From: a plasmid
Direction: 5' to 3' (one strand)
Length of the DNA: 64,000 nucleotides
Sequence record: NZ_CP044066.1
Numbering within the stretch: position 1 is the stretch's first letter; each line of letters starts with the position of its first letter. The notes under the pieces were generated by a model. That model did not search any database. It saw only the letters and a list, made by a program, of their open reading frames with translations, and was not told the origin of the DNA. Below are positions 1,612 through 51,815 of the stretch, in pieces. A program made the position numbers and the translations under genes.

Positions 1612-1635
1612 GGTCGATGCGTCAGAGACGCGGGT
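1612..1635 (-). repeat. M1 palindromic motif copy 1 (GGTCGATGCGTCagaGACGCGGGT)
   Basis: One of 11 same-orientation copies. About 80 nt upstream of the start of the 1533 gene. Confidence 0.6.
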
Positions 1636-1706
1636 AAAACCAGTTTTCGACAGCCGCGTGGGCTGTCGGAACATGGCTCTGCCAGGTTCAAAGGGTTGGC
1701 GTATGG

Positions 1707-3137
1707 CTACGCAAAGAGATCGTCAGTGAGCCAGTTCATCGCCGGTTCCGCGGCAGCCAGCGAAGGTGCCGCCGAATCCTTCGGTCCGGCGGTACCAGCG
1801 TCGAACTCCATGTCGACCAGACTGGCGACGACAGGCGGGCCAGTGACGACCTGCGCGGCGCGCTCCAACTGCACAGCCACCGCTTGCTCCGGCAATCCGC
1901 CAAGCACCCGATCGGCGATCGACTGTGCGTCTAGCGTCTCGAGCATCGACAGGCCGTCGATCAACGGATTTGCCTCCACGCCCGTCAGCTCACACCAGCG
2001 CGTAAGCTTCTCAGGCAACGTGGCCGCGCGGCTGATGCCTTCCGCACGGCTGCGCACCGCAGGCAGGACGCGCGCTTCCAGCTTGATCTCCGCACTGGCA
2101 CTGAACAGCGCCAGAATGGCGTCGCGATCGACCAGCTGGCGATGCTCCTCGTTGACCGTCCATCGTACCCGCACGAACTTGTCGGCGGCGCCTGCGGCGA
2201 CCTCGGTGAGCTTCACCATGTCTGGCGGACCATCGAAGTCCACGCATAGCGTCTCCCGCGCAGGCGTCTGCACCTGCGTGGCAGCGGCATGGCCAGGACT
2301 GACCTGCCATTGCAGATAGCCCTTCGCACCGATCTCGCCATAGTGGAAGCGCCCGATAGAACCCGGATACGCGACCACCCTGCCCTCACGCTCCCATTGC
2401 TGCGCGCGATGGATGTGGCCGAGCATAAATGCATCGCAGTCTGCGTCGAAGAGCGCACCAATGGTGAACTCGTGATCGAAGCCCGCCATTGGTACGCCAT
2501 GCTCGGTCTGGCAGCCGTTGACGGTGCCATGCGAGACCCCGATGGTGCGCACACCATGTGCCCGCCATAGACGATTGATGGCACCGGCGGCCCCAAGGTA
2601 GTCAGCCAGGTGATCGCCCACCGCTGTTGCTGCACTGGCGACGCCGGCAGCAGCTGCAAGCACCGCCTTGTTGACCGTAGGCACGCAGGTGAACACGACA
2701 TCGGGCGTGCCGCGCAGCGCAAGCAGGACTTCGATCTCCTCGGGAGCAAAGACGGCCCCATCCGACGGCACGAACTGCCCGTCGCAAAGCGCAACCTGAT
2801 GGATCCTATCCGCGACATACACGGGGTGTTGCGATCCGATCAGTCGGAATAGATCCAGCGTCCCGGGAGGTTCGTGACTGAACGTACCCTGCAGCATGAG
2901 TACCGGCATGTGCGCGGTCAGTTGGTGAATGCGCCGCGCGAGCGCCGAAAGCGCGGGCGTGTGAGCGTCGAGACGGTGATCGGTCGAATCGCCCGACACC
3001 ACACCGACGTGGCAACCGGCATCGATCGCGTCGCCGGCGGCGAAGCCGAAGCAGCGGTCAGCCTCGGCCAGGTGGCCCGGCGAATAATGCAAGTCCGAGA
3101 AATGGCCCACGAGCAGGCTCTCGCCTTCTTTGAGCAT
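1707..3137 (-). CDS. SbcD/Mre11-like calcineurin-type metallophosphoesterase (nuclease subunit)
   Basis: Start MLKEGESLLVGHFSDLHYSPG (phosphoesterase motif I) and later GHIHRAQ. SD GGAGG lies before the ATG at 3137. Confidence 0.6.
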   Translation of the reverse strand: MLKEGESLLVGHFSDLHYSPGHLAEADRCFGFAAGDAIDAGCHVGVVSGDSTDHRLDAHTPALSALARRIHQLTAHMPVLMLQGTFSHEPPGTLDLFRLIGSQHPVYVADRIHQVALCDGQFVPSDGAVFAPEEIEVLLALRGTPDVVFTCVPTVNKAVLAAAAGVASAATAVGDHLADYLGAAGAINRLWRAHGVRTIGVSHGTVNGCQTEHGVPMAGFDHEFTIGALFDADCDAFMLGHIHRAQQWEREGRVVAYPGSIGRFHYGEIGAKGYLQWQVSPGHAAATQVQTPARETLCVDFDGPPDMVKLTEVAAGAADKFVRVRWTVNEEHRQLVDRDAILALFSASAEIKLEARVLPAVRSRAEGISRAATLPEKLTRWCELTGVEANPLIDGLSMLETLDAQSIADRVLGGLPEQAVAVQLERAAQVVTGPPVVASLVDMEFDAGTAGPKDSAAPSLAAAEPAMNWLTDDLFA

Positions 3138-3233
3138 GATGTACCTCCAAGGGAATGTGCCGGCATTGCGGCGAGAAAGGAAAAAGGGAAGCCGCATGGC
3201 TTCCCCTGAAGTGCCGGCACGAAGCTGGCGGAA

Positions 3234-4445
3234 TTACATGGAGACGTCTGCCGCGATTGCAGCAACCTGTTCGCGGAACGCGAACGGGTTGGTGAGCGCG
3301 GTGCGCATCTCCTCGAGCAGCGCGCGCACATCGTGATCGCGTTTGGTCCAGCCGCGGCCGAAGCTGGCCACAGCGTAGAGGCGGAGTTGGTCGCGGCCCT
3401 CCTGCGTCGCAAGGCCGAGACGGGCTACGAGATCCTCGAACTGGCTCTGGGTATCCTCATCCTCCGACGTCTCGGCAGGCGTTTGGCCCGACAGCTCTTC
3501 GCTGACGCGATCAGGCTGCGGTGGGTCTTCGTCGGTAGCAAGCGGCGATTCCAATGCCGCCACGGCCTGCGTCGCCAGCTCGAGGGCCGGGGCCGCTCGG
3601 TCAGAGCCGTCGAGAAGCGCGCCGATATCGATCTCAGCGTCCAGCGTGATGAGCCATTGCATCTGGCGCATCGCGTTGCCATTCTCATCGATCCGGCTGA
3701 TCTCGGCTTCCTGCTTCGACATCCAGAACTTGACGCCCACCAGCTTGCCACGTGCCATCGCGACGGTCTGCATGGCGGCATATGCCTTCTGCAGAACGTA
3801 GATGGAGCTTGTAGGCATCTCGATGAGGCCGAGCCCGAGGATGTGCGGGATCGAAAAGTAGAACTTGGCCGACAAATTACACGCCCCCGACTGGTACTGC
3901 GGGCATGCCTGCGGATCGCAGAGGCCGTCCGGGATGTGGTCATCCTGACGCAGGATGATCGTGCGGCCGCCAAACATTCGTCGGGCCCGGCTGGCGCGCT
4001 CGTCGCGCACTGGCGGCGCGTAGCGCTTGCAGTACCGCCGGCCATCGCTGCCGTACTCGGAGAAGTACTGGCGTCCGCTTGCGGTCCACGCAACGAGCTG
4101 GTTGGGCATGTTGCTCAGCCAGTCGTCGAAAGCGAAGATCACAGGAAAGCGCCACAGCCGATGACCCTGGCCGTCTCCACGGTCTTCACCGTAGCGCTGC
4201 ACGATGTCTTCTGCAACTGCCGGGTTCGCGAAGTCCGAACCGCGGCATGTGAACCACGGAACGTTCTTGGGATAAAGCGCGTTCTTGATTCCGGTGGCGC
4301 GCTGAATCTCAGTACCGATGTGCTCGAACGATTTGCCCTGCGCGAGCAGCGCGTCATGAATGGCAACGGCTTTGGCATTCTCGCGCGCAGTCTTGGTAAG
4401 TACCTTAATTCCAGGGCGAATGGTGCCGATGATTGGCGGCCGCAT
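3234..4445 (-). CDS. hypothetical protein (~404 aa)
   Basis: Long ORF with high GC3 and no family recognised. The start Met is uncertain (4445 or 4508). Confidence 0.45.
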   Translation of the reverse strand: MRPPIIGTIRPGIKVLTKTARENAKAVAIHDALLAQGKSFEHIGTEIQRATGIKNALYPKNVPWFTCRGSDFANPAVAEDIVQRYGEDRGDGQGHRLWRFPVIFAFDDWLSNMPNQLVAWTASGRQYFSEYGSDGRRYCKRYAPPVRDERASRARRMFGGRTIILRQDDHIPDGLCDPQACPQYQSGACNLSAKFYFSIPHILGLGLIEMPTSSIYVLQKAYAAMQTVAMARGKLVGVKFWMSKQEAEISRIDENGNAMRQMQWLITLDAEIDIGALLDGSDRAAPALELATQAVAALESPLATDEDPPQPDRVSEELSGQTPAETSEDEDTQSQFEDLVARLGLATQEGRDQLRLYAVASFGRGWTKRDHDVRALLEEMRTALTNPFAFREQVAAIAADVSM

Positions 4446-4456
4446 GGGCCGCTCTT

Positions 4457-50768: not shown

Positions 50769-50775
50769 GGGGATT

Positions 50776-51198
50776 TCATAATAGAGAGCCGTAGCACTGG
50801 CGCTTGACCTCCTCGAGGACAGCCGTCAGGCGAGCGTGACCAAAGACAACGTCTTGCAGGACGTCAGGGCTCACGCCGCTGATGTCGCAGACGTACTTGT
50901 AGGGAATGGCGCCATCCCAGAACCCGAAAATCCAGCCGATCGTCATGAAGAGCTCTTTGCGATCGACGGCTTCGTTACGGATGCACTCCCGGAACAGCTT
51001 TGCGCAGTCCAGCAGCGATTCGGGCATGTTGACGCCATGGCGGCTGCCACAGGCGAGGTCGATGAGCGCATCGGTCAGGCGCTCGCGCAGCGACTCGTCG
51101 ACTGGCTCTCGCCGGCTGCGATCCGTCGGGGGAGGAGCAACGATGGCGGTCGCTTCTCCGAAGAAGTCCAGTTGCCATCCTGCGTTGGTTGTTTCCAT
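50776..51198 (-). CDS. hypothetical protein (140 aa)
   Basis: ORF with high GC3. Confidence 0.45.
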   Translation of the reverse strand: METTNAGWQLDFFGEATAIVAPPPTDRSRREPVDESLRERLTDALIDLACGSRHGVNMPESLLDCAKLFRECIRNEAVDRKELFMTIGWIFGFWDGAIPYKYVCDISGVSPDVLQDVVFGHARLTAVLEEVKRQCYGSLL

Positions 51199-51297
51199 GA
51201 TGGTCTCCGGACGGGCGTCCGAAGACCCACCTGCCGGCGGGTATCGGATACCCGCGACAGGTGGAAGAAGGCCGCCCGGGAACCGGGCGGCGGTGGA

Positions 51298-51621
51298 TCA
51301 GGGACGGTTGTCCGTCCCGGTTCGACGAATCGGTGTCACAACTGCCGAGCGTTCGTACTTGCGCTCGGGCTGCTCCTCCGGTTGAGGCGCGTCGGCTTTC
51401 GGCTTGGACGGATAGTCCGGCATCGATACCTTCGGTGCTGCAGGGATGCTGCGGCTGCTGTTGACGGCCTTGTTGTACAGATACGAGATCCCAACGACCG
51501 TCACGAATACACCGACGGGAAACGACTGGGATGCGAGATACAGCACCATGCAGAGCACGAGCAGTTGCAGGGGGCGCTTGACGAGATGAGCAAGGGATTC
51601 CACGGTTTCTCTCCGAAACAT
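51298..51621 (-). CDS. hypothetical membrane protein (107 aa)
   Basis: Two TM helices. Start ambiguous between ATG and GTG. Confidence 0.4.
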   Translation of the reverse strand: MFRRETVESLAHLVKRPLQLLVLCMVLYLASQSFPVGVFVTVVGISYLYNKAVNSSRSIPAAPKVSMPDYPSKPKADAPQPEEQPERKYERSAVVTPIRRTGTDNRP

Positions 51622-51791
51622 TGCAAGGGATGGTCCTGACGGATGTCAGGCGCTGGTTCGATGCTCAATGAGCAAGGAAGCCCGTGGACTGCGCGCGTGA
51701 ACGCACTTGCGTCATGCCGCGGCATGGCGCAAAGGCGCTGGTGCTGGGGAAAGAAGGGAATGGGCGAGCGGCACGTAGCCAACTTCGCGCT

Positions 51792-51815
51792 GATCGATGC
51801 GTGTGGACGCGGTGT
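51792..51815 (-). repeat. M1 motif copy 11 (GATCGATGCGTgtgGACGCGGTGT)
   Basis: Upstream of the 51621 gene. The 21-bp palindromic repeat lies about 75 nt further on. Confidence 0.5.

Follow-up and report, generated by a model that had tools for sequence, protein, structure and literature searches.

A repeated hairpin motif at the head of backbone transcripts in a pMOL28-type megaplasmid: a candidate structured mRNA leader

Is a short palindrome that recurs before many genes of a plasmid part of their promoters, an operator beside them, or part of the messengers themselves? The question is raised by M1, a motif present in eleven copies in a 64,000-nucleotide (nt) stretch of plasmid record NZ_CP044066.1 (hereafter, the window). 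A preliminary description of this DNA considered M1 to be an operator or promoter element recognized by a regulator or sigma factor encoded by the element, which was taken for an integrative and conjugative element (ICE). The analysis presented here points to a different answer. M1 appears to be a new motif of structured, cis-regulatory mRNA leaders carried by a mobile element, and its multi-copy, regulon-like distribution is unusual.

An anchored scan of the window found, on the plus strand at all eleven reported coordinates, a short hairpin preceded by TCGATGC, in a single orientation. A 24-mer search permitting up to three mismatches produced seven matches on this strand, while 0.02 were expected, and the claim of a frequency far above chance was therefore borne out. 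The covariance model R1, which consists of the M1 hairpin (hairpin A), the segment AUCGACC and a second hairpin (hairpin B), was trained on nine equal-length copies and run with filters off on both strands of the window. It detected ten copies, all co-oriented, with E-values from 2e-19 to 1e-3, and no further significant copies; the copy at 51792 was marginal (9.7 bits, E = 0.4), so that the eleven same-strand copies stand with ten of them significant. Read on the minus strand, which is the sense strand of the genes, the copies follow the consensus YCC-GCGUC-NNN-GACGC-AUCGACC. The arm variants are GCGCC/GGCGC, GCGGC/GCCGC and GCCUG/CAGGC, to which two 12-nt variants with altered half-site spacing must be added; on inspection of the copies, the asymmetry of the flanks and the compensatory changes in the arms, both described before, were real. 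Between the end of AUCGA and the start codon there are 83-93 nt in six copies, 27 nt at the primase gene, about 170 nt in copy 51794 and about 280 nt in the DUF932 copy, while copies 5262 and 45753 head long leaders, with more than 600 nt before the next large open reading frame (ORF). The range of 30-300 nt given originally thus needs correction. Of the two copies with long leaders, the one at 45751 had been regarded as an orphan; it is a promoter-type copy heading a long leader towards the integrase-like gene at 43865-45115.

Positions 12,000-20,800 of the window are 82% identical to pMOL28 from Cupriavidus metallidurans CH34, a plasmid typed as conjugative, MOBH and MPF_T, and there is also a relationship to pHG1 from C. 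necator H16. In addition, a protein encoded in the window matches one of a Cupriavidus pauculus plasmid with 100% identity. By these similarities the window is assigned to the backbone of a pMOL28/pHG1-type conjugative megaplasmid, and the proposed ICE could not be demonstrated. The minus-strand genes fronted by M1, as named by Pfam, are a Gp3-like/metallophosphoesterase operon, DUF932, a glycine-zipper lipoprotein, DUF3085, the PRTRC cassette with ParB, an N6-methylase block, an integrase-like gene and primase-SSB. The view of M1 as a shared, oriented cis element on co-oriented backbone genes (parB-PRTRC, primase, DUF932, slyB-like and others) was therefore upheld. A scan of the whole of pMOL28 with R1 gave ten strong matches, which share one strand and are confined to the backbone sector at 71-137 kb, with none in the metal-resistance islands, the type IV secretion system/pilus genes or the replication/partition region.

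The transcription start sites (TSSs) used were the published Cappable-seq primary TSSs of strain CH34 (Grosse et al. 2022, PMC9045368, supplementary file 2), 5,763 of which are ranked genome-wide. In pMOL28, all seven promoter-type copies have a TSS at R1 model position 1-2, that is, 7-8 nt upstream of hairpin A. These start sites are TSS_137004-5 (Rmet_6281, rank 28), TSS_90669-5 (parB2, rank 34), TSS_83384-5 (slyB, rank 39), TSS_93740-5 (Rmet_6245, rank 47), TSS_84558-5 (Rmet_6234, rank 102), TSS_130858-5 (Rmet_6399, rank 899) and TSS_75119-5 (Rmet_6222, rank 1119). Five M1 leaders are within the top 102 primary TSSs of C. metallidurans (unstressed CH34), their genes being mostly of unknown function, and the top-ranked ones sit among ribosomal-protein promoters in the table (PMC9045368). 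Promoter scoring of the seven TSSs assigned all of them to RpoD (sigma-70), six as strong and TSS_75119-5 as medium. The Cappable-seq list includes no TSS at three hairpin-preceded pMOL28 copies with strong R1 scores (78,884, 82,677 and 71,416), at the weak primase copy or at 90,600-90,659 within the parB2 leader. Because the mapped pMOL28 start sites sit 7-8 nt before hairpin A, M1 would occupy positions +8 to +29 of the transcript instead of promoter DNA, and the mRNAs with a promoter-type M1 are, by orthology, predicted to be very abundant primary transcripts. The idea of a promoter element or of a site for a special sigma factor lost its ground here, since the TSS precedes the hairpin at all seven promoter-type copies and all were scored as RpoD promoters.

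Seven copies of the window (5262, 13212, 14600, 20687, 32171, 45753 and 51794) are of the promoter type, with a sigma-70-like promoter upstream. In five of them, TTGnnn-17/18-TAnnnT boxes precede the hairpin by a constant distance; in copies 5262 and 51794 the -10 box was read by eye. The other four of the eleven lack a promoter of their own. At copies 1614, 9130 and 12508, the preceding gene is followed by a long GC hairpin with GUUUUAC and then directly by M1, and the primase copy follows ssb without a recognizable promoter. The promoterless copies retain M1 and the 83-95 nt spacing to the AUG. The hairpins ahead of the operon-internal copies (1643-1672, about 9160-9200 and 12536-12567, minus strand) resemble terminators, with only four U residues, and the combination of GC hairpin and GUUUUAC is conserved in related plasmids, with covarying stems; at the orthologous pMOL28 copies no TSS is listed. 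In a subset of M1 promoters, a TTGnnGAGCTTTC box was observed about 40-55 nt before the TSS (window positions ~5325-5340 and ~51855-51870, minus strand). The same box occurs at many Paraburkholderia and Caballeronia loci; as an activator or UP-type site, it might set apart a subclass of the promoters.

An exact 22-mer scan of a genome collection identified at least 120 loci, and the relatives and counts given here rest on the matches listed. About 88 of the 120 loci listed belong to Cupriavidus, Paraburkholderia, Caballeronia, Ralstonia and Burkholderia, often with several matches per contig. The remaining 32 loci, from other phyla, have their 22-mer matches in what appear to be coding regions and yielded four weak full-leader matches (19-26 bits). 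Among the matches listed, M1 is accordingly restricted to Burkholderiaceae, as had been anticipated with the proposal that it belongs to one element family. With R1, at least 156 copies were collected in Burkholderiaceae loci and the window. In this alignment, hairpin B shows double changes at five of five pairs, and 98% of its cells are paired. Hairpin A is nearly invariant, and its variants are mostly compensatory (eight double changes and one U·G at one pair): the base of the stem does not vary, the inner pairs shift by compensatory or wobble steps, and two copies alter the spacing. A single orthologue group goes from GCGUC/GACGC through GCGUC/GGCGC (U·G) to GCGCC/GGCGC, and it also includes GCGUC/GAUGC. 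A model of the full leader, R2, was built from eight slyB-type leaders and aligned 125 leaders of many gene families. In the R2 alignment, which was fitted to the model, 95.2% of the cells are paired versus 69.9% in shuffles, double changes occur at 23 of 24 pairs, and the covariation score is 0.404 versus 0.099 in shuffled alignments (0 of 500 reach it) and at most 0.043 in slid controls. All four helices (A-D) are supported by covariation. Plain MAFFT followed by RNAalifold on mixed leaders recovered hairpin A alone or together with C, since the lengths of B and D differ among leaders, which made model-based realignment necessary. These data support, across relatives, the view that the complementarity of the arms is under selection, as the compensatory changes had suggested.

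The start sites and the pattern of changes also bear on the possibility that M1 acts at the DNA level, as a double-stranded operator at +8 to +29 to which a plasmid-encoded global regulator binds, coordinating establishment and maintenance genes. Candidates for the regulator, taken jointly with this reading, are the PRTRC ParB in a KorB-like role and a repressor resembling Reg576. A 13-bp palindrome with highly conserved half-sites, located at many backbone promoters including that of parB itself and repeated 10-11 times in the window and ten times in pMOL28, always in the backbone sector, is what an operator could look like, and multi-operator regulons of establishment genes provide a precedent (Reg576, PMC6294495). 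The strong conservation of the half-sites speaks for the operator; we nonetheless consider it unlikely. Five M1 TSSs rank 28-102 of 5,763 at steady state, which does not fit a bound roadblock at +8, and four of the eleven window copies have no promoter. The changes in the hairpin are compensatory or wobble changes instead of independent half-site changes, the 12-nt variants shift the half-site spacing, and the conservation is strongly one-sided (AUCGACC). Furthermore, neither M1 nor an analogous repeat was found on the PRTRC ParB plasmids of Pseudomonas and Xanthomonas examined, while M1 is present on pBcn842-1, a MOBH/MPF_T plasmid of B. cenocepacia, indicating that M1 tracks a Burkholderiaceae plasmid lineage and not the PRTRC cassette. 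The strong steady-state TSSs, the promoterless copies and the compensatory, wobble and loop-length variation leave the operator for an element-encoded regulator, as first proposed, disfavored. One of the Pseudomonas plasmids, P. aeruginosa pNY5532-OXA (locus L127, 1240-2943), has at least nine copies of a ~21-nt iteron, TACTSAGGTTTNNTCCACGAT, near its PRTRC region; they are probably a replication or partition iteron array unrelated to M1.

With M1 transcribed, the structure of the RNA that it heads becomes relevant. The leader is about 115 nt long and consists of hairpin A, AUCGACC, hairpin B, a C/U-rich linker, hairpin C, hairpin D and the AUG. In the mRNA, hairpin A has 5 bp and a 3-nt loop, and is followed by the near-invariant, single-stranded AUCGACC. 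Hairpin B is conserved in structure and free in sequence, the arms of hairpin C have the form CCCnnnGGG, and hairpin D pairs the Shine-Dalgarno (SD) sequence GGAG in its 3' arm, just ahead of the AUG. AUCGA and the start codon are mostly 83-96 nt apart, in front of downstream genes that are unrelated to one another. When 49 non-redundant leaders were folded singly, the same series appeared, and the SD sequence was paired in the minimum free energy structure of 46 of the 49 and of all six window leaders folded. Compared with shuffles, the window folds have z-scores of -3.5 to -6.4 for five full-length leaders and -2.7 for the minimal primase leader, and no more than 2 of 200 shuffles fold as well. 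A search for an intramolecular partner or pseudoknot for AUCGACC within the leader found none, and the complementarity is slightly below that of shuffles. Each arm of hairpin C (window 13149-13175 and 14535-14560) is itself a mini-palindrome. CAUC directly follows hairpins B (CAUCUU...) and D (CAUC-AUG), which hints at "stem + AUC" as a repeated unit, present also after hairpin A.

The same folds address the strand on which the structure acts. The mean fold z-score of the 49 leaders is -4.1 in the sense direction versus -2.7 in the antisense direction. A strand-neutral count of interior non-Watson-Crick positions flanked by Watson-Crick pairs gave 11 G·U versus 3 A·C in mRNA sense, and the R2 alignment has 95 G·U versus 34 A·C on the sense strand. 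The wobble asymmetry and the composition-corrected z-scores argue for an RNA fold and against one formed by the template or transferred strand of the DNA. A single-stranded DNA element on the transferred strand, either a Frpo-like promoter or a primase recognition site in the leading region, had its appeal, given that all copies lie on one strand, that their neighbors are typical of leading regions (ssb, primase, parB, methylase and DUF932) and that a primase is encoded on the plasmid. Such an element is, in our view, very improbable: besides the mRNA-sense preference, the -35 and -10 boxes are ordinary duplex promoters, located outside all hairpins and used at steady state, and the spacing to TSS and AUG is fixed. 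A small peptide conserved on the plus strand (AG-rich tract plus ATG) was also considered and was rejected because the reading frames differ among copies.

Two further explanations accept M1 as RNA. In the first, the leader is a generic mRNA stabilizer or processing punctuation without a dedicated factor, where the 5'-proximal hairpin would slow 5'-end-dependent decay and, at the operon-internal copies, cleavage after the upstream hairpin would free M1-headed mRNAs. The location of hairpin A near the 5' end, the very high TSS read scores and the terminator-like hairpins immediately before the internal copies agree with it. We find this explanation, in both its parts, improbable, since it has no need for a near-invariant AUCGACC or an invariant stem base and leaves SD sequestration unexplained. 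Hairpin A is also preceded by 7-8 unpaired nt, and an unpaired 5' stretch of that length leaves the 5' end accessible, given RppH and RNase E. The second explanation is a cis-acting attenuation or antitermination device (put-, nut- or boxA-like), in which hairpin B with its U/C-rich tail would attenuate and M1 would load a factor allowing RNA polymerase to pass this hairpin as well as terminators further downstream. Its promoter-proximal position is appropriate, three hairpin B units are terminator-like by score and ~44% of the B tails have at least five U in 8 nt, the internal copies come after terminator-like hairpins, and abundant short transcripts would fit the high TSS scores. However, the U-tract is not universal, many M1 units stand before a single short gene, after which a new promoter begins, and the Rfam antitermination families gave no match; the probability that we assign to such a device, with its mechanism, is low.

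The reading that we prefer, at slightly less than even confidence, is that the M1 leader is a shared post-transcriptional recognition tag read by a trans-acting factor. RpoD-type promoters would fire 7-8 nt upstream of M1, so that M1 is transcribed near the 5' end, and at the operon-internal copies transcription would enter from the upstream gene across the terminator-like hairpin. The invariant stem base and AUCGACC would be the recognition site of the factor, most plausibly a sequence-specific RNA-binding protein encoded by the plasmid or by the Burkholderiaceae host. The factor would set the translation and/or the stability of about ten strongly transcribed, translationally masked backbone mRNAs; we infer both its existence and the direction of its effect. 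The leader lies within the 5' untranslated region (UTR), by orthology, and combines a covarying structure with an expression platform that pairs the SD sequence, as in structured cis-regulatory leaders. Several points weigh against this interpretation. The TSS evidence comes from the orthologous plasmid pMOL28 and not from the window itself, and the R2 covariation counts are biased towards the structure of the model, although the shuffle z-scores are independent of that alignment. Regulation by the leader is predicted from its structure. The near-invariant sequence of hairpin A would suit a DNA site equally well. Pfam, NCBIfam, PHROGs and Protein Data Bank (PDB) sequence searches identified no RNA-related candidate among the unknown ORFs; a homologue of the commonest M1-downstream protein is CesT-like in one annotation source. 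No antisense or trans RNA carrying GGUCGAUGC turned up in a search of the window and of the opposite pMOL28 strand. A more specific form of the recognition tag, which we regard as plausible but rather doubtful, is a global circuit of the backbone that resembles KorB but operates on RNA, in which a sequence-specific RNA-binding factor reads the tag (hairpin base and AUCGACC). With the same reservation, the circuit could unlock or lock about ten very strongly transcribed, SD-masked mRNAs jointly, or abundant M1-bearing 5' fragments could themselves act as a decoy or small RNA pool.

A comparison with known systems helps to define what is particular to M1. Rfam 15, searched at gathering thresholds over the whole window and at E-values up to 10 for three copies, has no family for M1 and matched only sbcD, elsewhere in the window. 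"Burkholderiales-1" (Weinberg 2010) was considered as the identity of M1 and was rejected because the sequence differs. The literature searched includes no mention of the motif string, and the pMOL28/CH34 transcriptome papers are silent on the motif. As in the KorB/OB and Reg576 systems, a single short site recurs at many backbone transcription units of a conjugative plasmid, a parB-family gene among them. Those sites, however, are DNA sites around promoters that keep steady-state transcription low, whereas M1 is downstream of the TSS of very active promoters, is also found in promoterless copies and evolves like base-paired RNA. Frpo/ssi elements are likewise repeated, co-oriented and non-coding, and precede ssb-, parB- and anti-restriction-type genes, but Frpo is a ~300-nt hairpin that rebuilds -35 and -10 on single-stranded DNA, while M1 has duplex RpoD promoters and its hairpins are in the transcript. 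Lambda nut, HK022 put and ops/JUMPstart share with M1 a short hairpin and a conserved single-stranded box in the first tens of nt, as well as repetition at several operons of one mobile element. M1 has no sequence or Rfam similarity to them and many M1 units precede single genes; unlike theirs, its leader ends in an SD-masking hairpin, which indicates translational control. CsrA/RsmA targets and FinP-traJ-FinO resemble it in having a structured 5' UTR that hides the ribosome-binding site, a tag shared by a regulon and a place on conjugative elements, but M1 has no GGA loop motif and an antisense partner was not found. The sbcD RNA (RF01757) occurs in the same plasmid family, inside one M1-tagged leader; it is a distinct 155-nt structure found once per plasmid, and M1 is outside its Rfam model.

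The individual leaders, all on the minus strand, can be followed along the window. The first copy (1612-1635) is an operon-internal exact 24-mer with hairpin A at 1619-1631 plus AUCGACC (R1, 38.0 bits). It heads the leader of a 171-aa gene (1015-1530; R2 match 1528-1639; fold z = -5.35), and, on reading the sequence, a terminator-like GC hairpin and then GGUUUUAC are found directly upstream (1643-1672). Copy 5262 (5260-5283; R1, 49.1 bits), whose pMOL28 orthologue has TSS_75119-5, is of the promoter type and heads a long leader. The sbcD RNA (4853-5007; cmscan, 148.8 bits, E = 3e-29) is within this leader, about 250 nt downstream of M1; because the pMOL28 orthologue of the leader begins at TSS_75119-5, the orphan sbcD motif is assigned by orthology to the M1-tagged 5' UTR of the Gp3-like/exonuclease operon. 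The GCGGC/GCCGC variant at 9128-9151 (R1, 36.5 bits; R2 match 9032-9155) is operon-internal, upstream of DUF932 (Pfam). The copy at 12506-12529, also operon-internal (R1, 29.9 bits) and a match of the 24-mer search, heads the leader of a 127-aa gene (12039-12422; R2 match 12420-12533; fold z = -3.46), and reading of the sequence directly upstream showed a terminator-like hairpin and then GUUUUCAC (12536-12567). The slyB-like lipoprotein gene has a complete leader (13117-13237; R2, 134.6 bits; fold z = -5.40), with a predicted TSS at ~13236, M1 at 13210-13233, hairpins B, C and D, and the AUG at 13119. Its promoter is TTGCTG-18-TACCAT (13267-13272/13243-13248), and the pMOL28 orthologue has TSS_83384-5, rank 39. 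Another complete leader (14513-14625; fold z = -5.63), that of a 236-aa gene, has M1 at 14598-14621 (GCGCC/GGCGC; R1, 59.9 bits) and the promoter TTGCAA-18-TAAGAT (14655-14660/14631-14636), with TSS_84558-5, rank 102, as the orthologous start.

In the PRTRC parB leader (20554-20712), which is also an R2 match, M1 lies at 20685-20708 (R1, 54.9 bits) behind the promoter TTGAAA-17-TATTCT (20741-20746/20718-20723); the orthologous start is TSS_90669-5, rank 34. The leader of a small membrane-protein gene (32080-32195; R1, 44.6 bits; R2, 57.2 bits; fold z = -6.36) has an M1 with a 4-bp stem and a 4-nt loop (32169-32191) and the promoter TTGAAA-17-TACTAT, and corresponds to TSS_93740-5, rank 47. The promoter-type copy at 45751-45774 (R1, 42.9 bits) has TTGTTC-18-TATTCT and corresponds to TSS_130858-5. 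The minimal leader of the primase gene, with primase domains according to Pfam, occupies 49188-49242; M1 lies at 49215-49238 (GCCUG/CAGGC; R1, 16.7 bits, E = 0.0012), and the leader has the order hairpin A, AUCGACC, one hairpin holding GGAG, and AUG (49190). The last copy (51792-51814), upstream of a 107-aa gene, is degenerate (GCGU-ccac-ACGC, AUCGAUC), and its pMOL28 orthologue scores 27.3 bits with R1 and has TSS_137004-5, rank 28. The gene content near the copies is leading-region-like (ssb, primase, parB, methylase and DUF932).

Other features of the window touch on this sector. A cargo or insertion block at about 21000-30000, between parB and the methylase block, splits the M1-bearing backbone sector and includes two GntR-aminotransferase regulators, a LuxR-type response regulator, an rve-family transposase and an alpha/beta hydrolase. 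On the plus strand, an FlhC-domain protein (53453-54628), a coiled-coil partner (52218-53441) and a weak AcaB-like match (5419-6051) suggest an activator module of the AcaCD/SetCD type, consistent with the MOBH typing of pMOL28. This candidate module may drive the rightward and transfer genes, which have no M1.

Megaplasmids of the pMOL28, pHG1 and pRALTA type equip Cupriavidus and its relatives with genes for metal resistance, hydrogen lithoautotrophy and symbiosis. In these plasmids, M1 would define a candidate post-transcriptional regulon of about ten backbone units, namely parB-PRTRC, the primase, DUF932, the exonuclease operon with sbcD, lipoproteins and unknowns, and the orphan Rfam family sbcD would gain a transcript context. 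M1 leaders account for several of the top C. metallidurans TSSs that belong to plasmid genes of unknown function, and the motif offers a defined 22-nt handle in a model strain whose TSS maps and plasmid-free derivatives are already available.

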